A DNA stretch of 60,119 nucleotides, filler included, from Squatina squatina (lineage: Eukaryota), in the NCBI GenBank assembly GCA_031763465.1. It is 3 parts of 3 records of this genome, joined end to end, with 100 filler letters (N's around TTAATTAATTAA, not from the genome) between each part and the next. Parts side by side here need not be neighbours in the genome. Positions count along the whole stretch, not along the records: positions 1 to 30,589 come from JARFOE010000149.1; 2 more parts are not named here. One strand, given 5' to 3'. The position numbers and the translations under genes were made by a program. The notes under the pieces are model-generated. The model did not search any database. It was not told where the DNA came from and saw only the letters and a list, made by a program, of their open reading frames with translations. Below, piece by piece: positions 4,211-60,119 of this stretch (position 1 is the stretch's first letter; the number at the start of each line of letters is the position of its first letter).

Positions 4211-4345
4211 CTGGTTATGGATAGAAATATGAAATTAATTCGCCCAATGGTCCTGTTTGAACTGAAAGAAGAAACCCCAATTCGTCACAAAGTAGTGTTT
4301 GGCCCACTGGACTCAAACCACTTGTACCTAACATCTGAGAAAGCG
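4211..4345 (+). CDS. PLXNC1: Plexin-C1 internal exon, end of Sema domain (135 nt, LVMDRNMKLIRPMVLFELKEETPIRHKVVFGPLDSNHLYLTSEKA)
   Basis: Acceptor tttcttgcag, donor GCG|gtaagc, phase 0-0, open frame. Resembles recalled PLXNC1 ...PEVIYEIKEETPVFYKLVPDPVKNIYIYLTAGKE. Absent from the ORF track. Confidence 0.75.
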
Positions 4346-5682: not shown

Positions 5683-6090
5683 TTACATTTTTAATATTGT
5701 TTTTATTACTTAAACCCTAACACTAAACCCTTTCTGCCTTCAGAAAAGTCGGATGAAAGAGTAAATTCCAAACTTTGTAAAATGCATTGGATATAAAAGC
5801 TCAATGTGCCTCTTGCTGTGATCAGTTAGAATCAGGTGCTTCATGTTCAGGTGTAGTGAGCACAAACCACCCATTGTGGAACTGCTGCTCTCAATGCCAT
5901 GTGAGCTATGAGCACTCAGGGAGTGTTGTCATTTAGCACCATAGGAATTGCTGGACAAAAATGACCATCTCGTTCACCTTCTCCCATCCTNNNNNNNNNN
6001 NNNNNNNNNNNNNNNNNNNNNNNNNNNNNNNNNNNNNNNNNNNNNNNNNNNNNNNNNNNNNNNNNNNNNNNNNNNNNNNNNNNNNNNNNN

Positions 6091-6780
6091 GATTAAAAGG
6101 AGTGGGAGTGGAGGGGAGCAGCAGATTACACGGAATGGAGAGGAGCGGCAGATTAAAAGGAGTGGGAGCGGAGAGGAGCGGCAGATTAAAAGGAGCGGGA
6201 GCAAGAGGAGCGGCAGATTAAAAGGAGTGGGAGTGGAGGGGAGCAGCAGATTACACGGAATGGAGAGGAGAAGCAGATTAAAAGGAGTGGGTGTGGAGAG
6301 GAGCGGCAGATTAAAAGAAGCGGGAGCAGAGAGGAACGGCAGTTTAAAAGGAGCGGGAGCGGAGAGGAGCGGCAGATTAAAAAGAGTGGGAGTGGAGGGG
6401 AGCAGCAGATTACACGGAACGGAGAGGAGAGGCAGATTAAAAAGGAGCGGGAGTGGAAAGGAGCGGCAGATTAAAAGGAGCGGGAGCAGAGAGGAGCAGC
6501 AGATTAAAAGGAGCGGGAGCGGAGAGGAGCGGCAGATTGAAAAGGGTGCTTGGCAGACATAACGGATGGCACCCTGCACCCTCGGGAAGCCAGCTATGTT
6601 GGCGAAGCTCACGCTCTGTCTTGCTGACCTGACGTCTGAAGACTCGCCAATCATAACTCATTTGATGTCACCTTCTTGTCCGACCTCTCGGAAAGGAGAG
6701 TGGTGTGGAGAGGAGCAGCAGATTGAAAAGCAGTGGGAGCGGAGAGGATTGGCAGATTAAAAGGAGCTGGAGCAGAGAGG
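6091..6780. repeat. Purine-rich minisatellite, 33-bp and 27-bp units
   Basis: gattaaaaggagcgggagcggagaggagcggca units interleaved with gattacacggaatggagaggagcggca; interrupted at ~6541-6690. Confidence 0.9.
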
Positions 6781-8250
6781 ACTGCCTCATCTCTCTTGGA
6801 TCCAAAAGCAGGCGATCCGTCTACCTCACCTACCTCATGTGGTGTCGGTGGAGTACCCACTCCAACATTAGTGATGCCCCCAATGACCAAATAGTCAAAT
6901 GTGTCACGAAGCGAACTGGTCAGGCAAAGGTAAATCAATGTCATCTCTCTGCTCCAAAAAGATGCCATCCCTGCACCTCTGTTCCCACTCTAACATTAGT
7001 GATGCCCCCCCTGGACGAATGTTAGTTACATTTTAAAAACTCAATATTTGTAAGGTAAGTGAACCCCTTTTAACTTTCTTACAATGCCTACAACACTATT
7101 TAGCTGAAAAAATTGCGATTAAAAAAAAATTAGCACTGATTTTCCTGAAAAAAACACTTCAACCATCACTCCCCACTGGGTAACATAAGGGCTGGAAACG
7201 CAATCGAATTGTTGAGCGGGCTGTGCCCAATGATGAAGTCACGCTTGCCCTCGACCGCTGACCACCGCACTTTGAGCGTTCCTGGTCAAACGCTCCATTT
7301 GCGCCCCACCTGTGATCGAGTTTGCGGATCACGTATCTGACTTTTCAGCCACCTCAGAACACACAACTCCAGAGTGGAAGCAAGTCATCCTCGACCCTGC
7401 GGGACTGCCGAAGAAAAAGAAATGTACTGAGCAATATACAGGAGGATTGGCAGACACTGTTTACATTTAGACTTCAAATTCTAACATTTAAATTTTGGAA
7501 TTTTTTTGCAATTTACTTTTGCATTTTGAATAATTAGGGGATTGCTGTCAATAATGCTAGAAGCCTAAATTCACTTATTACCTTGAAAGATTATAGATTT
7601 CAGGTCAATTCATGCTTACAGTAATTTATGTTGCTTTTGGGAACAAAAGAACTTGCTGAAAATCTATAATTTGGAAAATCCTTAACCAAAGGCTTCTCTT
7701 TCCTTGATTGCGGACAAGGATGTTGCTTCCAGATCCAAATTCTCTCTGGAAGAACTGTTGAAATGATATCTTCAAATCAGAAAGAAGGAAATTGCTCAAT
7801 TTGGAGAAATTGATGAAGTAATGGTGAGAAGTGGTGTGTGTTCAGTGAGATTTTAAAATTTGCCCATTGTTCTTTGGAAAATAAGACACGCAGTATTCTT
7901 TGAAATATATTTTTTACTTGAAAGCGAAACGTCGATCTTGTTGAGAAAAAATAATGACTTGTTTACTGTCAACGTGTGAGTTAATGTTGCAATTGCTCGG
8001 TAAGTAGTTTGCTTTTGCAGGCAACTTGGACCAAACCCTGCACTGAAAGACAAACATTTTACTTCTGGAAAGGAGTTGATCAAATAATAATTGAGCAGTA
8101 ATTATTGATCAGCTCGTTGTATTTGTAGTGGCACTAGTAATGTGCTCTTTCGATTGTGACCAATTACGATTAACTCCTAATTAAAATATATGGGAGTCCA
8201 TTTACAGACAAAAGTGAATCAATACTTGCAATATTTTCTCTGCTACATGA

Positions 8251-8307
8251 TCCCAACACCAACAACTGTGACAAGCACAAAAGCAGCTTCTGAAACTACT
8301 GTCTCTT
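8251..8307 (+). pseudogene. Mucin-repeat unit lacking a canonical acceptor (pseudo-exon A)
   Basis: 57-nt homolog of the adjacent exons, frame open (PTPTTVTSTKAASETTVS), donor gttagt; acceptor reads catGA instead of catAG. Confidence 0.6.
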
Positions 8308-8395
8308 GTTAGTATGGTTCTTTGTCATCATCACGTGGAATCTATTTGCAGCAATTAATGAATTAATGCATTGTAATTTTTTTTCTGCTGCATAG

Positions 8396-8452
8396 TGTCA
8401 ACACCAACTACAGTGACAGGCACACCGACTACATCTGAAACGAGCACCACAA
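8396..8452 (+). CDS. Mucin-like Thr-rich micro-exon B (STPTTVTGTPTTSETSTT)
   Basis: 57 nt, ttttctgctgcatag|...|gtaagt, phase 1-1. Confidence 0.8.
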
Positions 8453-8541
8453 GTAAGTGCGGTTCTTTCTCATCGTCAACGTGAAATTTATTTCGAGCAA
8501 TTAGTGCATTGTTAATTTGTAATATTTTTTCTGCTCTGTAG

Positions 8542-8598
8542 GTTCAACAACAACTGCAGTGACATGCATTCCGACAACTTCTGAAACTACCATCACTG
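8542..8598 (+). CDS. Mucin-like micro-exon C (STTTAVTCIPTTSETTIT)
   Basis: 57 nt, ttttctgctctgtag|...|gtgagt, phase 1-1. Confidence 0.78.
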
Positions 8599-8685
8599 GT
8601 GAGTATAGTTTTACACATCGTCACATGAAATCTATTTACAGCAATTAGTGAATTACTACGTTGCAATATTTTCTCTGCTACATAG

Positions 8686-8742
8686 GGCCAACAACAACTA
8701 CAGTGACAGGCACACCTACAACTTCTGAAACTATCATCTCGG
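8686..8742 (+). CDS. Mucin-like micro-exon D (PTTTTVTGTPTTSETIIS)
   Basis: 57 nt, ttttctctgctacatag|...|gtaagt, phase 1-1. Confidence 0.8.
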
Positions 8743-8774
8743 GTAAGTAATGTTTTTTCTGATTGTCAATTTTC

Positions 8775-9250
8775 CACTGCACTGATTCCTGGGATAGCAG
8801 GACTGACGTCGGAGGAGAGATTGTGTCGATTTGGCTTATATTTACTGGCATTTAGAAGAATGAGAGGGGATCTCATGGAAACCTGTAAAATTGTAACAGG
8901 GCTATACCGACTAGGTGCAGGGAGGATGTTCCCGATAGATGGGAATTCCAGAACCTGGTGTCACAGCCTCAGGATACGGGGTATGCCATTTAGAACCGAG
9001 ATGAGGAGAAATTTCTTCACTCACGAGGTGGTGATCCTGTGGAATTCTCTACCATGGAAGGCAGTGGAGGCCAATTCATTAAATATATTCAAGAGGGTGA
9101 TAGATATCTTTCTTTATGCTTAAGGGATCAAGGGATACGGGCAGAAAGCGTGATCAGGGCACTAAATTAATTGATCAGCCATGATCATATTGAATGGCGG
9201 AGCAGGCCCGAAGGTCTGAATGGCCTGCTCCTGCTCCTATTTTCTATGTC
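8775..9250 (+). mobile_element. CR1 3' fragment within duplication copy 1
   Basis: RRMRGDLMET...HSLRIRGMPFRTEMRRNFFTH plus CR1 tail. Confidence 0.85.
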
Positions 9251-9394
9251 ACATGATATCAACCCTGCTAAAACTGACCATAAATATGCTGTCTTTCTAG
9301 TTCCGTTGAAGAATTTCAGATGTTCAGCTCTTGGATATTTAAGTGTATAAATCAGTACTGGTTGAATTGTTCGATATAACTTTTGAAAGTTAGT

Positions 9395-9832
9395 GTCAGC
9401 TGTGGGTCAGTGGGCAGCACTTTCGCCTCTGATTCTGAAGGTTGCGGGTTGAAGTCCCACTCCAGGGACATAAGCCCAAAAATCTAGGCTGACTCTCGAG
9501 CGAGTGCTGCGTTGTCGGCGGTGCTGTGTTTTAGATGAGGCAATAAACGGAAGCCCAGTCTGCATCTCAGGTGAATGTGAATGATCCCATGGGGCTAATG
9601 GGAAGTGCAGCAGATGAGTTATACCCGGTGTCCTGTCCAATTTTTATCCCACAATCAACATAGCAAAAAACAGATTATCTGGTCATTATCAGATTGCTGT
9701 TTGTCGGAGCTTGCTGCTGCATTTCCAACATTGCAACAGTGACTACACCCCAAAAGTGCCTCATTGGCTGTAAAAAACTTTGAGAAATCTGGTTGTTGTG
9801 AAAGACGCAATATAAATGTAGCCGTTCTTTCT
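9395..9832 (+). mobile_element. Deu-domain tRNA SINE (SacSINE1-like)
   Basis: tRNA-like head with A/B boxes, central gatcccatgg...ccggtgtcctg core, tail ...tataaatg..ttcttt. Confidence 0.75.
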
Positions 9833-9904
9833 TGGGATGTTTATTATTTGTTGAACATGTTTCTTTCATCCTGTATACTGCCAGCGGGTTCTGCGGGGAA
9901 AGAT

Positions 9905-10062
9905 AAGAACACAAGAAATAGGAGCAGGAGTAGGCCAATCGGCCCCTCGAACCCGCTCCGCCATTCAACAAGATCATGGCTGATCTTCTCCCTCAATGCC
10001 ACTTTCCTGCACTGTCCCCATAGACCTCGATGCCCTTAATATCTAGAAATCTAACAATCTCA
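9905..10062 (-). mobile_element. CR1 3' tail
   Basis: aagaacacaagaaataggagcaggagtaggcc is the reverse complement of the CR1 tail. Confidence 0.75.
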
Positions 10063-10127
10063 ATATGAGTGATGGCAAATAGTGAAGGCTTGATATAATC
10101 TTTTGAAACCTTTTCTGTGCCATATAG

Positions 10128-10172
10128 GTGTAACTGCGAGCACAAGTGTGTCAGCTTCGACTTCCCCCACTG
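10128..10172 (+). CDS. Ser/Thr-rich micro-exon E (VTASTSVSASTSPT) linking the two mucin-exon clusters
   Basis: 45 nt, ccttttctgtgccatatag|...|gtaatt, phase 1-1; same phase and composition as the flanking exons. Confidence 0.6.
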
Positions 10173-11251
10173 GTAATTGATGCACATTTATTTTGAGCGT
10201 TTAAGAATTTTGCAATAATTAGGATTGAGGACGTGAATGCTGCCTGTTATTCTAAATTACTGGCTTTATCAGTAATAGCTTCAGGAAAAGATTAATACAA
10301 TCCGTAACTTTGATTTTCATGGATACTTTGTGATGTGTTGCTCTTGCATGGTTGAGAGCAAAAATGGCAACAGTTAGTTCTCATTAAAATCACCACATGT
10401 ATTCATAACTGCCCTAAATGTATTGGGCAATGGTGAACAGGAAGATTGGCAGAAACTGTTTACATTTAGATTTCAAATTTTGATATTTGAGTTTCAGAAT
10501 TTTCTTTTCAATTTACTATTGCATTTTGAATAATTCGGGGATTGCTGTCGATAATGATAGCAGCCTAAATTGACTGATTACCATGAAAGATTATGGGTTT
10601 CAGTTCAGTTGATGGATCCAGTAATATTTGTTGCTTCTGAGAACAAAAGGACTTGCTTGAAAGCATATAATTTGGAAAATCCCTCACCAAAGGCTTCTGT
10701 TTCCTTGATTGCGGACAAGGATGTTGCTTCCATTTCTAATTTCTGTTTGGAAAGACGGATGAAATGATATCTTCAAATCAGAAAGAAGGAAATTGCTCAA
10801 TATGGAGAAATTGATGAAGTAATGATGAGAAGAGGCGTGCGTTGAGTGTGGTTTTCAAATTTGCCCATTGTTCTTTGGAAAATAGGTCACGTAGTGCTCT
10901 TTGAAATACATTTTTTACTTGAAAGCAAGATGTCGATCTACTTGAGAAAAAGATAATGACGTTTCTGCTGACAGCATGGGAGTTAATGTTGCAATTGCTC
11001 GGTAGGAAGATTGCTTTTACAGGCAACTTGGGCCAATCCCTGCACTGAAAGACAACCATTGTACTTCTGGAAGGCAGTTGATCAAATGATAATTGTGCAG
11101 CAATTAATAATCTGCTGATGGTATTTGTAGTGGCACTAGTAATGTGCTCTTTCGATTGTGACCAATTACGATTGTCTCCTATTAAAATATATGGGAGTCC
11201 ATTTACAGCCAAAAGTGAATTAATACTTGCAGCATTTACTCTGCTACATGA

Positions 11252-11308
11252 TCCCAACACCAACTCCTGTGACAGGCACAAAAGCAGCTTCTGAAACTAC
11301 TGTCTCTT
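11252..11308 (+). pseudogene. Mucin-repeat pseudo-exon A'
   Basis: Same catGA non-canonical acceptor and gttagt donor as 8251-8307; frame open. Confidence 0.6.
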
Positions 11309-11397
11309 GTTAGTACGGTTCCGTGTCATCATCACGTGGAATCTGTTTGCAGCAATTAATGAATTAATGCATCGTAATATTTCTTTCTGCTGCATAG

Positions 11398-11454
11398 TGT
11401 CAACACCAAGTACAGTGACAGGCACACCTACAACTTCTGAAACTACCATCACCA
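11398..11454 (+). CDS. Mucin-like micro-exon B' (STPSTVTGTPTTSETTIT)
   Basis: 57 nt, ctgctgcatag|...|gtgagt, phase 1-1. Confidence 0.8.
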
Positions 11455-11541
11455 GTGAGTAATTTTTTTTTCATAGTCACATGAAATACTCTTGCAGCAA
11501 TTAGTGAACTAATACATTGCAATATTTTCTCTGCTACATAG

Positions 11542-11598
11542 GGCCAACAACAACTACAGTGACAGGCACACCTACAACTTCTGAAACTACCATCACAA
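11542..11598 (+). CDS. Mucin-like micro-exon C' (PTTTTVTGTPTTSETTIT)
   Basis: 57 nt, ctgctacatag|...|gtaagt, phase 1-1; ctaat branch-like motif upstream. Confidence 0.8.
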
Positions 11599-11686
11599 GT
11601 AAGTAATGTTTGTTCTCATTGTCACATGAAATCTACTTGCAGCAATTAGTGAATGAATACGTTGTCATATTTTCTCTGCTGCATAG

Positions 11687-11743
11687 GGCCAACAACAACT
11701 ACAGTGACAGGCACACCTACAACTTCTGAAACTACCATCACGA
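11687..11743 (+). CDS. Mucin-like micro-exon D' (PTTTTVTGTPTTSETTIT)
   Basis: 57 nt, ctgctgcatag|...|gtaagt, phase 1-1. Confidence 0.8.
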
Positions 11744-11779
11744 GTAAGTGATGTTTTTCCTGATTGTGACTTGTCTACT

Positions 11780-12233
11780 TGACTGAATCCTGGGATGGCA
11801 GGACTGATGTATGAGGAGAGATTGGGTCGAGTCGGCTTATATTCACTGGCGTTTAGAAGAATGATAGGGGCTCTCATAGAAACCTCTACAGGACCAGACA
11901 GACGAGGTGCAGGGAGGATGTTCCCGATGGCTGGGAATTCCAGACCCTGGTGTCACAGCCTCAGGATACGGGGTATGCCATTTTGAACCGAGATGAGGAG
12001 AAATTTCTTCACTCACAAGGTGGTGAACCTGTGGAATTCTCTACCACAGAAGGGAGTGGAGGCCAATTCATTAAATATATTCAAGAGGGAGATAGATATC
12101 TTTCTTTATGCTTCACGGATCAAGGGATACGGGGAGAAAGCGGGATCAGGGCACTGAATTAATTGATCAGCCATGATCATATTGAATGGCGGAGCAGGCC
12201 CGAAGGTCTGAATGGCCTGCTCCTGCTCCTATT
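11780..12233 (+). mobile_element. CR1 3' fragment within duplication copy 2
   Basis: Paralog of 8775-9250 (MAGLMYEERLGRVGLYSLAFRRM...). Confidence 0.85.
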
Positions 12234-12333
12234 NNNNNNNNNNNNNNNNNNNNNNNNNNNNNNNNNNNNNNNNNNNNNNNNNNNNNNNNNNNNNNNNNNN
12301 NNNNNNNNNNNNNNNNNNNNNNNNNNNNNNNNN

Positions 12334-21604: not shown

Positions 21605-24498
21605 GTAAGAAATTACTCGCTGATGCATCGCAGCATTTCGGTACATTTGAGATAACTTTCTTTGCAAAGTNNNNNNNNNNTGGCTAACCCTTCACATGTT
21701 TAAGAGTCTCCAAACCAAGGTACTGAGAAATGCACACAAGAAAGTAAAGATTTTGTTTTCCTGATGCAGACAGCATACTCTCACTTGTAGGGATACATCA
21801 TACTGACCTAAATCCAGATGGTTTAGGCACAGGTTCACAGAGTCAAGATTTAGGGCCCCAATTGTGGTTTGGAACATTACTGGAGTTTAATGAACTAAAG
21901 TCATGTTCCCCGCCCGTGTGACAATTGAAACTTAGCACTTAATATTCTGCATTGCTTGTTCATTTTGTAATATGTTCTAAGTAGTCAAGAGCTGTTGAAA
22001 ATATTTTAATTGGCGAGAACACAAAAACAACAAAAAAAAAGTTACAAACATTGAACCTGCCCAGATTCAGTCTCCTCTAAACAGACCTTGGATCCCTTAA
22101 TTTCAGGAGTTTACCTTTACTGCCCACCAATATCTAGTCAGATGATCGTGAGACCTGTGTGCCGTAACACTTCACAATATGAACTGGATTCTGGAATTCT
22201 ATATGTGCTGCCCGTACACTTTTCTAATCTCCCTAAAGATGGAACTGATTAAAACTTTAGTAAGACAAGGCCAAGAATGAACTGATGAGCTAAGCCCGTC
22301 ACACTGTCTCTATTTGCAGGCTAAATATAACTTTTCTGATCAGTAGCTCCTCTGACCTGGTCAGTGCCACCATAAGGAGGACATTCTGAATCCCTGTGCC
22401 TGTCTTCTTTAACAGATCTTCCAAACTATCTCTTACTATTCTCCAATCAATACCCACTTTGGATTGGTGTTTTGGTTGTTATCAGTGCTAGCTTTTTGCT
22501 CACCCAAAACACTTATCAGTCCCGATGTCAGTCGCCATTCATATTTTTCCTCAGTCATAATGCTGCTTTGGTAGATGGGAAAATTTAGCCTCTATTTTAC
22601 AGTACTAGTAAAAGTGTAATGTTATTACTCACAGCTTCTGGGCTATTTGGCAGGTTTCAGTCAGTACATCAGTAAACCGACATCTCAAACACCGATCAGC
22701 TAGTTTTTTAATGTTCTTTTTACCCCGTCGTCTCCCGAGAGCACCAACTTTCACTGGGTTATGGTTCCATCGACACTGCCCCTCCCTGGCACCTTGCCAA
22801 AGTAATCTCCATCATGTTGGCTTTTTTTTTTATCAGGGCAGACATTACAGTTGAGCCTGATCTGCCTTTAACCAATGCCCACTTGTGCTTCCATCAGGGA
22901 CTACTGGATAAAAGAACGGAAGACTTATATCTCTATAGTGCCTTTCACAACCTCAGGACATCTCAAACTGCTTTACAGATAATGAAGTACTTTTGAAGTG
23001 TAGTCACTGTTGTNNNNNNNNNNNNNNNNNNNNNNNNNNNNNNNNNNNNNNNNNNNNNNNNNNNNNNNNNNNNNNNNNNNNNNNNNNNNNNNNNNNNNNN
23101 NNNNNNNNNNNNNTAGGACCTGGTAGGAGACAGACGCACTGAAATCATCTGAGCCGAGAGCCCATTCTTCATGTAAAGAAAGACTTGCATTTCTATAGCG
23201 CCTTTCACAACCTCAGGACATCCCAAAGCGCTTTACCACCAATGAAGTACTTTTGAAGTGCAGTCACTGTTGTAGGAAAAACTGATTCAGCAATTAATAA
23301 AAATTGTTACAATGATACCTGTTATACTTTGTAACAGCACCTGGTAAGAATTTGTGTTATGTGTTGGGCTCCAAGGTGCTCAGCCATGGAATTGTTACAT
23401 TGAGGTTTTGTACGTTTGATAATTCATGCCATTCATTCTGCTTGTTGAATATATATGTAATGCATTATTTTTGTGAATACATTTTTAAAAGAATTGAAAC
23501 ATTTTTGACTGATAGACAGAAGCTACGTATCATCTCATATTTGGTACCTTGATAAAATCTTAGCCTGACTTAAATGTTTAATATTTCTACATGATGACTG
23601 GTTAATAATGGCAATGATTGCACTATGGTCATATAGACTGATGCAGTGGTATGCCATTGTAGTTCTTGGAAGGTTTCATTATTTAGCACTTTATTTTGTG
23701 TAAGCCCTGAAGATGCCATGAAGGATTCAGTTATGGCAGCGTAATCGGTGAAAGTAATTGGGAATGATTCATCTGAGAGCTCAGGGATCCAGAAAGATTT
23801 GTTTGCAGGCAGGCTAGGGGAGAGTCATAGTGATTTCACTTACACAAGTGTGTATGGCTAGGAAACAATAGCTTTGATTTACTACTGAGGGCAATCCCCG
23901 AATCACCTTGAGACTGGTAACAAGAGACGAAAGGCTGCAAGTGAAAGATGCTAACTTCGAGCAGCAGATGACCTGGACTAAGAAACCTTGGTTAGTACAT
24001 GCTCTCATTTGTGCTGCATTTACATCATGTACTGTTCTATTTTTTAAATAGCCAGCTTGGGAACTATCTTCTGAGAGTTAGCTAGATACATTTTTTAATG
24101 AAATTACACTAAATATAAACCCTTGTAACATATATGCACAATATATTTGAAGTGTGCATATTCTGTGTCACTTTGAACTCAACTCTGTTCCTATTAACCT
24201 TGGATCATTTTCTTTCATTTTTTTCAATCACGCTTTGTAATATTTTGACACCTTTACTGCACAAAATAAATACCTTTTACTCATATGAACATNNNNNNNN
24301 NNNNNNNNNNNNNNNNNNNNNNNNNNNNNNNNNNNNNNNNNNNNNNNNNNNNNNNNNNNNNNNNNNNNNNNNNNNNNNNNNNNNNNNNNNNNAAAACTTT
24401 AGAAGCACTGAAGTTAAGATGTTCTCCTAATCCATAAAGTAAGCTCGGGTTATTGTGCATAGCTAATGCAATTCTTGGCCAGTAGTGGTGCATCTTAC

Positions 24499-24614
24499 CT
24501 TGTGTAGGTGTTCCAGTGCTAGCACTATCTCCCCACTGTATATTCTCACTGCATTCTCTGTGAAGCGCTCCCTCTGGGACAAGTGAGTGAACAGTTCGCC
24601 TCCATTCACATAAT
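24499..24614 (-). CDS. RPS6KA5: MSK1 N-terminal kinase domain exon (116 nt, (D)YVNGGELFTHLSQRERFTENAVRIYSGEIVLALEHLHK)
   Basis: Acceptor tttgtatgacag, donor AAG|gtaaga; matches recalled MSK1 DYINGGELFTHLSQRERFTE. Confidence 0.9.
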
Positions 24615-25037
24615 CTGTCATACAAAGTAAAACATTATACATGAGGAAGACACCATAGTAAACTTCAGAATGCAATAAGATAGAAAAAAAAAGGGTGGAG
24701 AGTACCACACAGAAACAGGTGTTCGGCGGCATAAACACACATTTCACGCATACAAAAATCCGCATTCAATTTTTGCCATATTTGTTTAAAGAGTACTAAA
24801 AACTGATTTTACATAAAATACTGCTTGCATTAGTTGTACATATAATTTAAGAAATGTAGCTTAGCAAACAAAATTTATGAAACATTTTTATTACAATTCC
24901 TAGCATATCCCTGCTGTGTTTCCAGGAAAAAATTGAAGGCAAAAAGTTCTGATGGTTATCAGAAGATGCTGTGCACAGACTTACATTAGAGCTTCACACT
25001 TGTGACACTTTGACTACATTTGAAACATAAATATAAA

Positions 25038-28838: not shown

Positions 28839-29122
28839 AAGTTGCTGGTGTAATACTCTACACAATCTCCCTTATCCATCTTAACCTCTGCTGGGTTACC
28901 AGTCTCCTCTTTATCAGAGGTCGCCAATGCCGGCTTTTCCGCAATTTTGAGCTTTTTCCTTGGATTGATGATGTCATTTGGGGGTGACAGGAACCTGTTT
29001 TCTGCATTGATTGTGAGTATAATTGGCTCAGTTTTCACAGCAGGATTTTTGCCAGGAGCTTTCCCTTGATTTTCATGGCACATTCTTCTGTGTTTAAGCA
29101 AACGATCAGTTCTAGAAAAATA
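28839..29122 (-). CDS. ZNF148: ZBP-89-like zinc finger protein, 5' part of exon (YFSRTDRLLKHRRMCHENQ...), truncated by gap
   Basis: Acceptor tttccttgcag; frame open to the gap. MCHEN after the last finger favours ZNF148 over its paralog ZNF281. Confidence 0.8.
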
Positions 29123-29486
29123 CTGCAAGGAAACGCATTGGAGAGAATTAATAAGTCATTATTGTTTATGTCCTTACGATTAAAGCAACAAAGGACAAGA
29201 AGGCGTGCATTGATTGTAGCCATTGGCATGTTAAAGACAGTTCTGGCATGAGGCAAAGCAAGCTACCACTTGCACCAAAGTGTGCAAGAACCTACACAAA
29301 GTCACACCCTTCAACTACTGACATTGGTTGTGGACACATGCATTTTTGAATTTATTGTCAGCTGTTTATGATTCCATTTTACAACTNNNNNNNNNNNNNN
29401 NNNNNNNNNNNNNNNNNNNNNNNNNNNNNNNNNNNNNNNNNNNNNNNNNNNNNNNNNNNNNNNNNNNNNNNNNNNNNNNNNNNNNN

Positions 29487-33600: not shown

Positions 33601-33730
33601 NNNNNNNNNNNNNNNNNNNNNNNNNNNNNNNNNNNNNNNNNNNNNNNNNNNNNNNNNNNNNNNNTAGGTCATTCTTGATTAAGCATTCTGGACTCCCTGT
33701 TTTAATGTCTGCGTGCCAGCTTTACAAGGA

Positions 33731-33950
33731 ATGGATCAAATGGATTGTAAACCTTACCAACCACTACCAAAAGTTAGATGCGAGATGGAATTGGCATACA
33801 CAAGCTCTTCAGATGAAAGTGAAGATGGCAGAAGCCCCCAGAAATCCTACAACTCTAGAGAAACACTTCATGAATACAATAAGGAGCTGAGGATGAATTA
33901 CAACAGTCATAAAAAAGATATCATGCAAACGGTTGAAGAATCCAGACAAG
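33731..33950 (+). CDS. TENM1: Teneurin-1 first coding exon (MDQMDCKPYQPLPKVRCEMELAYTSSSDESEDGR...VEESRQ)
   Basis: ATG at 33731, donor AAG|gtatac; matches recalled TENM1 N-terminus MEQTDCKPYQPLPKV..LAYTSSSDESEDGR..SYNSRETLHEYN. Confidence 0.93.
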
Positions 33951-34364
33951 GTATACATGTATTTTTTATGTGTGTCTGTATGTATGTAAATTTTAAATGT
34001 ATATCTAGATATATAGCATACTCCTACTAACTCATGCCTGTCGAGAACCAAGTGAAATCTGCAAGTTAAAAGAGGTCACTGAATACAGCAAGCCTGGAAT
34101 GTGCTTAATTTGGTTTTCTCTACATTTATCAGTCAGTATGTCTTGTATTTTCATGATACACAGTTTAAAGGAGTTTTACTCTTTGAAAGTGTGAAAAAAT
34201 AATAAATTAAGCAAATTAATCAGATGGAATGGAAAGACAACTCAAACTCACATCTAAAGTGGATTCATGGGTTAGCCTCGTACCTTTTAAAAGGAGTATA
34301 CTGTGTTACTATCATTATTTGGAGGTAACTTTAATTGTAATAAAGCAGTCGAGGTCCCATAGGA

Positions 34365-56084: not shown

Positions 56085-58535
56085 TAAGCATCTGCAACTT
56101 TGTTTGCCAAATTGCTGCCAAGTTGAAAATTGCATTCTTGGCTTTGAAGCTTGTTTTGACAGACTGAATGCCACGTTGTGTTTTCTGCGATGACTTTAAC
56201 TCAGTGGTAAATTTTCACCACTAGCGGACTAAAAACAGCAACTGAGCCAATTACAACAGAATAAATCCAATCCAGCAAGTAAGTAAAATAATCCTCCTTG
56301 TGATTGCTGAAAAGCCAACATGAACATACAAACTGGTGTTGAACCAGTTACTTGACCAAGAGCACTGACTACAGTGATTGGCTTTTATTTGCCCATTGAA
56401 ACTGAAGAACTAAATTTTCTGCCCCTTTAGTTTGAATGGCTAGCAACTCTAGTACGTATGGCTCATTATGTCTTTAACTAACAGATAACACTTATTGACC
56501 ATTAGAATAAACAGGTACATAAATATACCTGCTGCATACTAGAGCAAGCCTTTACTGTACTCAAAGATTTGGGGCCCCAATTGGTTTGCCTTCATTCCCG
56601 GGTAGCACCGATCAGTGACGCAACCCTGGTGTGAAAGCAGCGTAGAACACAAAAATTATCATTTTAGNNNNNNNNNNNNNNNNNNNNNNNNNNNNNNNNN
56701 NNNNNNNNNNNNNNNNNNNNNNNNNNNNNNNNNNNNNNNNNNNNNNNNNNNNNNNNNNNNNNNNNNNCACCTTCTCAAGGGCAACTAGGGATGGGCAGTA
56801 AATACTGGCCTTGCTAGCGATGTCCACATCCCGGAATGAATAATTTTAAAAAAGTCTTTATTCTAAAGAGGTTCGAGACCCAATACCCAGGGCTCCTCTG
56901 ACCGCTTGATTCAGATGCAGGTGCTCCTGGATTTCTAGGCCTATGGCTCTCCCACCCATTTATTGTGGGGATAAGATCAGTAGACAATGATCATACAGCC
57001 CTTAGGAAATGCAAAGGGAAATGGAATGGAGGCAATTTTGGAGCTGTCTCGGAAATTGATATCCAGTGACATGACGTATTGTACAATACTGTGAAATAAT
57101 TTCTTTACTGTAAACTATTTAGTGCTCTCTCTGGGTTAAATATGCATTGACCTACTGCCATATTACATTATACTAAGTTGAAAACTTGCTAACATTCATC
57201 CTGATCAAATATATCTGAACCCATTTACTCTAGTTAACATGTATAATCCTCATTTATGACACACAGGTCTCAATATTCAACATAGTTTGTTGACCTAGCA
57301 AGAAATTCATCCTTTTAGCTTCAACCATTAAACCTTCATCCTATTTGACACTTTGATCAGGGCTGGAATTGCCTAATAGCAAATAAGCACTCTCAGCTTA
57401 GACCTCTAAGTCAACCTCCAGAGCAACATATCTGCTATATTTAGAATAAGATGCAAGGTCTGTTCTCCTATGTAAAATTAATTCTTGCCCTGGCAAAAAC
57501 CTATTTATAGATTGGAACAAAATGCTCTCTGTGCTTTGTGCTGCTAACTGGTTCTGTTTGCACTGCAAATTACATTTTACATTAGTCTGATACACTATAA
57601 ATGAAGCAATTCAAGCAAAAATATAACACAAGGAAGACAAGGCAAATGATAAAATAATTGCAAACACACGTTTTCAACAAGCAGAGCCTAGTGCCATACA
57701 AGGCTTTTGCATAGATACTAGATAACAAACAACTGACTGCAATACTGACAAGAAAATTCCATGCATGGTCTGATCAATTAATTCATGAACATCAAAGTGA
57801 TTGAGTTAGTTAAAGTGAGCTCATGAGAAATATAAAGCATATTAGTTAGCCATTCATTATTATTTTTACATCACGTTAGATTATAGTTTAACTTAAATTA
57901 TACGTAAGACCATAAGAAGTAAGAACAGGAGTAGGTCATTCGGCCCCTCAAGCCAGTTGGATCATGGCTGATCTGACATTCCTCAAGTCCACCTTCCTGC
58001 CCTTTCCCCATAACCTTTGATTCCCTTACTGATTAGAAATCTATCTATCTCAGCCTTAAATATACACAAGGACTCAGCCCCCACAGCTCTCTGNNNNNNN
58101 NNNNNNNNNNNNNNNNNNNNNNNNNNNNNNNNNNNNNNNNNNNNNNNNNNNNNNNNNNNNNNNNNNNNNNNNNNNNNNNNNNNNNNNNNNNNNTAGCACT
58201 CTCACCTCTGAGTCAGAAGTTTGTGGCTTCAAGCCCAACTCCAGAAGCTTAAGCACACAAATTCTATACTGATATGTCAGTGTAGCGGTGAGAGAGGGCT
58301 ACACTTTTGGAGGCAATGTGTTTCAGATGAAATATTGGTCTAGAAATTTGATTGCACTGAAAACAGGTGCACAGGAGGCCACATTAAATTGGAGCTGGCA
58401 GATCATTATCTCAGGCATATCTGTGGATTTGTTTGGGCACAGCGAAATGAGGCTTCATTGATACTAATTAAAGGCAGCCAACACCTCTTAAAGGAGAGGT
58501 GCAATCAGGCTGCAGATAGCAGTAAAACTTTGCAA

Positions 58536-58781
58536 ATGGAGAAATGGCAGCAAGAGGTTCAGAAGGCCACCAGGTTCACTGATGAAGTATTGGAGGCCCT
58601 GGTTCAGGGGATGGACAGGAGCGGGGAGATCCTGTTTTTCCCAGGGGGCAAAAAGCCCCCCAGGCAAGACCTCCATTGCCAGTGGGAAGAGATTGCTGAG
58701 GATGTTAATGCCAGGACCTTAGCTCCTAGGACAAGGCTATTATGCCATAAAAAGTTCAATGACCTCACGAGAGTTGTCAAG
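58536..58781 (+). mobile_element. PIF/Harbinger-type Myb/SANT-like DNA-binding domain exon
   Basis: 82 open codons: RFTDEVLEALVQ...LF...WEEIAEDVNA...RT...KKFNDL; ends AAG|gtgaaa. Confidence 0.75.
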
Positions 58782-60119
58782 GTGAAAATCTTACCTCTCA
58801 CCTCAACTGCTCTCTCATCACACCCACCGCATCACTACTCACAATGCTTTCCTCTCTCACTTCCCTTCCCATCCTCTCTCCCACCGTTCCTTCCTCTTTT
58901 CTGCCTCCTCCCTTGTATCTGCTTCCTCCCCCTTAGTTAATTGTGATTAATGTACAGCCCTACTTTTAACACGGTTGAACACCAATAAAAGTATTAGTAG
59001 TTGTTAACGGTAATTTTACTGTGAAGTAAACACAGGTGGAAGAGATCTTATATTGTGTAATTTATAGCCTGTCTGTTTGCTCAGATTACTCCACATCCTA
59101 GTTCAGCACACTACCCTGATGAACTGTGATTTGTCTAATGAATCTATACATAGTCCTCCGGTAAACAAATGCCTGCTTCAGCGCATCAAATAACACAAGG
59201 GCGATACAGGCTTATTTCCAGTACACTATCATCTCACCCTTCAGCTGCCCTTAATAATAAACATATATTTGAATATGAACCGTACTGAATTATAAGGATT
59301 TATTCACTGTAAAAAAAATATATATTTTGAAGGTTTCTTTTCGGGCGAAAAGGGGATAAGATTTACAACTAACTTACACCAAAGAAAGAATAAACTGGTC
59401 CGGTTTGAAAGCACAGTTCTGCACTGTATTTCAATCAGTAAACCTTAGCCGTTTACGAATTGATTGGCCACCTCGAACATACAGCTCAATGGGTTGACAT
59501 TGCTATTTTTAGAAAAAATAATCTTACAATGGCATCCCATTACCAACCTAACCTTGGGTGGTTACTATGTGATAACAAAAATTAGAACTTTTATATTCAT
59601 CCTCTCTTGTGAGTATACAATGTGTAAAGAATGCACATATGCAAGTATTGTAACTGTGAATGGGGGAGAAAAATCAAGGACATCATAACTAGAAATTTTC
59701 AATTAATTTACAAAGCTTATTAATAGAAGTGTTCTGAATCTAACCCAAAAAGAAAAACTGATGTGAGCTGAAAAGTAATTTTCCTTAAGGGACATGCAGA
59801 CACATGCAGGTATATACATGGGGAAGTACACGAAGACCAACATAAATATATAGTCAGACATACATATACCCAAACTACCCATTTATTCAGCTACGCATCT
59901 GCTCGCTTCGTCTGCAATCGCCCAGTGACTAACTGTTCTTTTTTTTCCCCCATGTAGCCAAATTCCCCTTCCAGCATCATTGATTCTGCATAGTAAGATT
60001 AAAATAAGATTGTGAATAGGGAATTGTAAAGTGGAAATTAATTTGTATTTCCTAAATATATGACCTTGCGGGCTGTATTAAAATACATGTTTGTCAACTG
60101 AGTCCTTGATACTAGCAAA

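Follow-up and report, generated by a model that had tools for sequence, protein, structure and literature searches.

The window analysed here is a 60,119-nt stretch of DNA from Squatina squatina (GenBank assembly GCA_031763465.1), in which we found an array of seven small coding exons, six of 57 nt and one of 45 nt. We estimate a probability of about 0.85 that they form part of the central, predicted O-glycosylated proline/threonine/serine-rich (PTS) domain of a shark mucin of MUC19 type, secreted and gel-forming, in which each repeat occupies an exon of its own. Gel-forming mucins polymerise into mucus through disulfides of their N-terminal D3 region and C-terminal cystine knot, and mucin PTS domains carry dense O-GalNAc glycosylation.

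Each of the six 57-nt exons is preceded by a pyrimidine tract and TAG and followed by GTAAGT or GTGAGT, and the introns between them measure 87–89 nt (Table 1). A first-pass annotation of this DNA had proposed two clusters of four ~144–147-bp units with 57-nt phase-1 exons and introns of this length, and all its coordinates proved exact. As it stated, six of the eight units have canonical AG/GT, a 45-nt S/T-rich phase-1 exon lies between the clusters, and the spliced peptide is open, with the same junction residues. The two exceptions open their clusters and show GA at the place of the acceptor AG. The seven exons joined give 128 codons with no stops, 72% of them coding for serine, threonine or proline (S/T/P). 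At 63% S+T and 9% P, they lie above the threshold used for the PTS domains of gel-forming mucins (at least 40% S+T and more than 5% P; PMC4948705, cited, like the other articles below, for excerpts of its text). Both other frames of all six 57-nt exons contain a stop codon, and every forward junction among the seven exons creates a sense codon (AGG, AGT, ATG, GGG, GGT or GTG). The 45-nt exon aligns to the 57-nt unit, including the end of the intron, with a 12-nt in-frame gap. Finally, a rule-based scan of the plus strand of positions 6091–12233 for phase-1, S/T/P-rich exons of 30–120 nt returned exactly these seven.

Table 1. Exons, probably inactive units and duplicated blocks of the array, by position along the window.
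Feature	Position	Strand	Description	Basis
Unit A0	8251..8307	+	57-nt open exon-like copy, acceptor AG changed to GA; likely dead	
PTS exon A1	8396..8452	+	57 nt, phase 1, TAG / GTAAGT	
PTS exon A2	8542..8598	+	57 nt, phase 1, TAG / GTGAGT; most diverged, one Cys	
PTS exon A3	8686..8742	+	57 nt, phase 1, TAG / GTAAGT	
45-nt exon	10128..10172	+	phase 1, TAG / GTAATT; old unit copy with 12-nt in-frame deletion	
Unit B0	11252..11308	+	57-nt open copy, same GA acceptor defect; likely dead	
PTS exon B1	11398..11454	+	57 nt, phase 1, TAG / GTGAGT	
PTS exon B2	11542..11598	+	57 nt, phase 1, TAG / GTAAGT	
PTS exon B3	11687..11743	+	57 nt, phase 1, TAG / GTAAGT; 56/57 nt identical to B2	
Copy A of ~3.0-kb duplication	7420..9241	+	spacer, dead unit, three live units and LINE-like fragment	blastn self-match
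Copy B of ~3.0-kb duplication	10416..12233	+	truncated at contig end	blastn self-match
LINE (long interspersed element) 3' fragment	8770..9241	+	intronic, copied along with the block (other copy ~11770-12233)	repeat families D8, D13, D15, D16; self-blast

The host was sought with a profile search using six window stretches that cover the exons. Two of 2121 candidate proteins matched, XP_067860684.1 (E 8.5e-15) and XP_067860680.1 (E 4.6e-12), both of them RefSeq models from Heptranchias perlo placed on a 50.8-Mb contig. By Pfam, XP_067860680.1 ('mucin-19-like') consists of TIL-VWD-C8 followed by PTS, and its matches in PDB were to the mucin D'D3 region of the solved MUC2, MUC5AC and MUC5B; in XP_067860684.1 ('apomucin-like') the PTS part precedes a cysteine-rich tail that contains Cys_knot. 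The PTS parts of these models comprise 14 units of 19 amino acids (aa), identical to the window exons at 12–16 of 18 positions, and four 15-aa units, which agree with the 45-nt exon at 11 of 14. Among 124 proteins compared, the next best reached 13/18 and 9/14. The two unit types alternate in both models, as they do in the window, which bears out the view that the micro-exons of the window are coding parts of a mucin PTS domain. All the Heptranchias units begin with Gly, whereas the residue at the window junctions is S, G, V or R. Both models are also informative at their ends: the first 11 residues of XP_067860684.1 match a translation of the intron that immediately precedes exon B3 (rank 3–4 of 108,805 window positions), and the last residues of XP_067860680.1 show the GN read-through that is also obtained at the donor of the 45-nt exon. 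Since both ends resemble intron read-through, the Heptranchias repeats probably also occupy separate exons with homologous introns. We infer that the two models represent one split gene, to whose orthologue the window exons would belong. The first-pass annotation had considered the host gene not identifiable; the matching proteins instead supply a VWD-C8-TIL N-terminal part and a cystine-knot C-terminal part. In the whale shark, an N-model and a C-model, which are placed on contigs of equal length, likewise share repeats of 19-aa period, with diverged sequence.

The same matches bear on the nature of the protein, which had been likened to the stalks of CD45 and CD44. It seems extremely improbable that the array specifies an O-glycosylated membrane-protein stalk of the CD45, CD44 or MUC13 type, even though low-complexity PTS repeats can converge and the 20-aa, one-per-exon repeats of chicken Muc13 (PMC1552070) offer an analogy: between them the two matched proteins, the only ones among the 2121 candidates, carry VWD and cystine-knot domains in place of the FN3/PTP, link or SEA/EGF domains and transmembrane helix of such proteins, and they share with the window both unit types, their alternation and the intron-like read-through. 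The comparison thus gives way to a secreted gel-forming protein on the MUC19 side. Among the best 120 of 1012 matches, the D3 region of XP_067860680.1 was 58–70% identical to a large elasmobranch group, and 51–55% identical to MUC19 of tetrapods, coelacanth and reedfish versus 41–46% to MUC2/MUC5. A quick, unrooted IQ-TREE tree of the query and 69 of these 120 VWD-region matches, built without MUC6, VWF or otogelin, placed every elasmobranch row on the side of MUC19, separate from MUC2/5 (Shimodaira–Hasegawa-like approximate likelihood ratio test, SH-aLRT, 100), and clustered the query with whale-shark and Mustelus models (support 100). Because the VWD region groups with MUC19 and not with MUC2/5, a secreted, gel-forming mucin of MUC19 type is the likely host, rather than a CD45-like protein. 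The whale-shark and Mustelus relatives of the Heptranchias model also have the N-terminal VWD-C8-TIL.

The C-terminal side gave a similar picture. The three closest C-models have 127–139 aa after the PTS part, compared with ~220 aa in mammalian MUC19 and 536–810 aa in nine other elasmobranch paralogues. So short a tail implies that they have no D4 (fourth VWD), like mammalian MUC19; both MUC6 and MUC19 are described as being without D4 (PMC4948705). The D3 grouping and the short cystine-knot C-terminus without D4 are shared with the vertebrate MUC19 family (mammalian MUC19, submaxillary apomucins and stickleback spiggin). A gel-forming mucin of another subfamily, either MUC6 or a shark-specific lineage, is nevertheless to be weighed: the tree contained no true MUC6, MUC6 is present in ghost shark (PMC4948705), CysD domains, typical of MUC2/5 according to the same article, occur in some members of the clade, and public names within the clade are mixed (mucin-2-, 5AC-, 6- and 19-like). 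We consider this very unlikely, since the matches of top identity outside elasmobranchs (51–55%) are named MUC19, no non-elasmobranch MUC6 occurs among the best 120 of 1012 matches, and MUC19 also supplies the best matches of the C-terminal region outside elasmobranchs. Within the same 120 matches, elasmobranchs show at least six MUC19-like paralogue lineages, several of them on one contig per species. Many of these paralogues have CysD domains and D4-sized tails, and their RefSeq names (mucin-2/5AC/6-like) are probably a naming artefact. For comparison, the excerpts describe three Muc19 paralogues in ghost shark and Muc19 expression in frog skin (PMC4948705), and VWD mucins detected in shark skin mucus by mass spectrometry (PMC10707392).

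To look at selection, the units were compared in 15 pairs, which are not independent. Exons showed no gaps and introns 18, with mismatches at 13.8% and 20.9%, respectively. The ratio of nonsynonymous to synonymous differences (pN/pS) was 0.61 among live units and 0.89 between dead and live ones. When neutral change was simulated at intron rates, a unit was intact 40% of the time, and six or more of eight units were intact with P = 0.05. Taken by itself, the window therefore gives modest evidence of selection that is suggestive only, and the case rests more strongly on other species. The first-pass annotation had taken the constant exon length as a sign of selection on frame. Some of these figures would also suit a decaying, unexpressed copy (a pseudogene or orphan duplicate) of MUC19-type PTS exons that is now minisatellite-like. 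Two of eight units have lost their acceptor, exon A2 has gained a Cys, pN/pS and the neutral survival of at least six units are as given above, and the existence of several elasmobranch MUC19-like paralogues makes spare copies plausible. However, all six live donors retain the full GT(A/G)AGT consensus, the 57-nt exons have no indel against 18 intron gaps, the sole exon indel (that of the 45-nt exon) is in frame, and the 57/45-nt design is common to the Heptranchias models. A decaying copy is thus unlikely, if somewhat less so than the other two alternatives.

If the array is indeed part of a functional MUC19-type gene, placing one repeat in each symmetric exon would allow units to be skipped or duplicated with a change in length and the frame intact. 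Units might be gained and lost by unequal crossing-over, and loss of an acceptor, as in A0 and B0, would drop one repeat silently and leave the frame unharmed. The RefSeq isoform sets of paralogues from seven species were compared in nine groups, with at most 15 members per cluster and after dropping three rows (other genes or fragments). Here 65 of 105 isoforms equalled the longest listed one minus one clean deletion; in 46 of the 65, the deletion was a block of 13–40 aa with a mean of 72% S/T/P, and 29 of the 46 blocks were 13–21 aa long. In the clade that contains the query, each of the three models has one entry. These counts support small, frame-preserving PTS exons as a probable feature across the family. 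They give less firm support to real exon skipping in the paralogues, as near-identical exons attract mis-mapped short reads. In bat MUC19 models, blocks of 10–18 aa within the PTS region were dropped in five of eight isoforms compared, so the trait of small PTS exons may be more widespread within MUC19. Length tuning by skipping at the array locus itself is plausible. A search of sequencing runs for positions 11380–11760 listed no RNA run, a result that counts neither for nor against expression. With clearly less than even odds, we tentatively suggest that sharks and rays possess at least six MUC19 paralogue lineages whose PTS domains consist wholly of symmetric cassette micro-exons, and that regulated skipping tunes their length and glycan load.

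Several observations weigh against assigning the exons to a MUC19-type gene. A tblastn search with ten mucin models found no VWD or cystine-knot exon in the window and matched only PTS units, and the mucin link therefore rests on similarity between low-complexity repeats. In Heptranchias the evidence consists of automatically annotated proteins, split into two models, with exon boundaries deduced from protein. A similarity to intron read-through in the whale shark was seen in tblastn, fell outside the top 8 when scored ungapped, and was not counted. To these are added the quick, unrooted nature of the tree and its lack of MUC6, VWF and otogelin, the modest selection signal within the window (P = 0.05, pN/pS 0.61 and two of eight units dead), and the origin of the isoform evidence in other paralogues, where mis-mapped short reads can inflate the counts.

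The proposed design differs from that of the human genes. The central repeat exon of human MUC19 is reported to be without introns (PMC13345508, citing Zhu et al.) and the PTS domains of human MUC2, MUC5AC, MUC5B and MUC6 are single exons (PMC9712336), whereas the window has a separate exon for each repeat. It is not without precedent, contrary to what the first-pass annotation implied: chicken Muc13 has one PTS repeat per exon in near-identical exons, the PTS domain of zebrafish Muc13 is multi-exon, and the same hypothesis, that splicing tunes the length, was proposed in 2006 (PMC1552070). Muc13 is a transmembrane SEA/EGF mucin and the window gene is likely a secreted VWD/cystine-knot mucin, so that the likeness is one of gene design and not of membership. 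The repeats of the VWD mucin FIM-B.1 of Xenopus are polymorphic via alternative splicing. FIM-C.1 is likewise described as highly polymorphic via alternative splicing (PMC7177656). Both are secreted skin mucins, FIM-C.1 with trefoil domains, and are likened to the array by description only. As the design has these precedents and the gene had already been modelled automatically in a relative, the finding is moderately surprising. A literature search with sparse coverage of subscription journals returned no description of one-repeat-per-exon PTS domains in shark MUC19, nor, for cartilaginous fish, of a splicing-based alternative to the single-exon variable number tandem repeat (VNTR) of mammals.

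The assignment would give an otherwise orphan repeat array a named host, and with it a compact, testable example of a gel-forming mucin that keeps each repeat in its own exon. The proposal of 2006, by which splicing sets mucin length within one individual, would become testable in shark skin or gut. If the family-wide proposal is true, sharks and rays would have a splicing-based alternative to the mammalian VNTR, varying by tissue or state in one animal. Separate repeat exons also suggest why such genes are split and misnamed (mucin-2-, 5AC-, 6- or 19-like) in public annotation.

About 30 runs of 100 N break up the window every 1–3 kb, and unrelated coding pieces (one exon of a kinase, one from the N-terminal part of a teneurin, and a C2H2 tail) lie side by side in it. 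The window thus most likely consists of short unplaced contigs strung together; for this reason only positions 6091–12233 are informative for the array, and its neighbours in the window give no synteny. This 6.1-kb contig is bounded by N runs at 5991–6090 and 12234–12333, and since it stops at them on both sides the array may extend further. Tandem Repeats Finder reported 3.9 copies of 144 bp at 8200–8768 and 3.8 copies of 145 bp at 11214–11767. Each cluster lies in its own copy of a ~3.0-kb block, as blastn aligned the two segments with 87% identity over 1830 nt. Duplication of a block that holds ~145-bp units indicates two scales of duplication. Between the two clusters, introns at corresponding positions diverge unevenly (7%, 29% and 15%), which suggests unit turnover or conversion after the block duplication. 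The LINE fragment carried by the block is one that we take to be CR1-like. The same contig opens with a purine-rich 33-bp minisatellite of 14 copies (6091–6545).

Units A0 and B0, with their broken acceptors, are likely dead and would be skipped. Their use through an upstream AAG was considered and rejected; this site is in frame and open in A0, stopped in B0, and is without a pyrimidine tract. The closeness of the two units (3/57 differences) is not significant against their flanks (Fisher P 0.10–0.20). In both, the acceptor defect leaves an in-frame ATG (8247–8249 and 11248–11250). No signal peptide follows these ATGs, which are probably incidental.

The remaining coding pieces were discarded as markers of host or synteny, as they lie on other short contigs beyond 100-N spacers. 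They comprise a protein-kinase exon at 24466–24765 on the minus strand (Pfam Pkinase, E 4.5e-7), presumably similar to MSK1/RPS6KA5; a C2H2 zinc-finger tail at 28850–29152, also on the minus strand, with a weak Pfam match, which we take to resemble ZNF148/ZNF281; and an exon of the teneurin intracellular region at 33686–34027 on the plus strand (Pfam Ten_N, E 1.6e-11). A possible AG/GT-bounded exon at ~4211–4345 (plus strand) presumably resembles a plexin/Sema region. Finally, an open reading frame at 58347–58937 (plus strand) encodes a Myb/SANT-like DNA-binding protein that we assume to derive, probably, from a Harbinger-type transposon.

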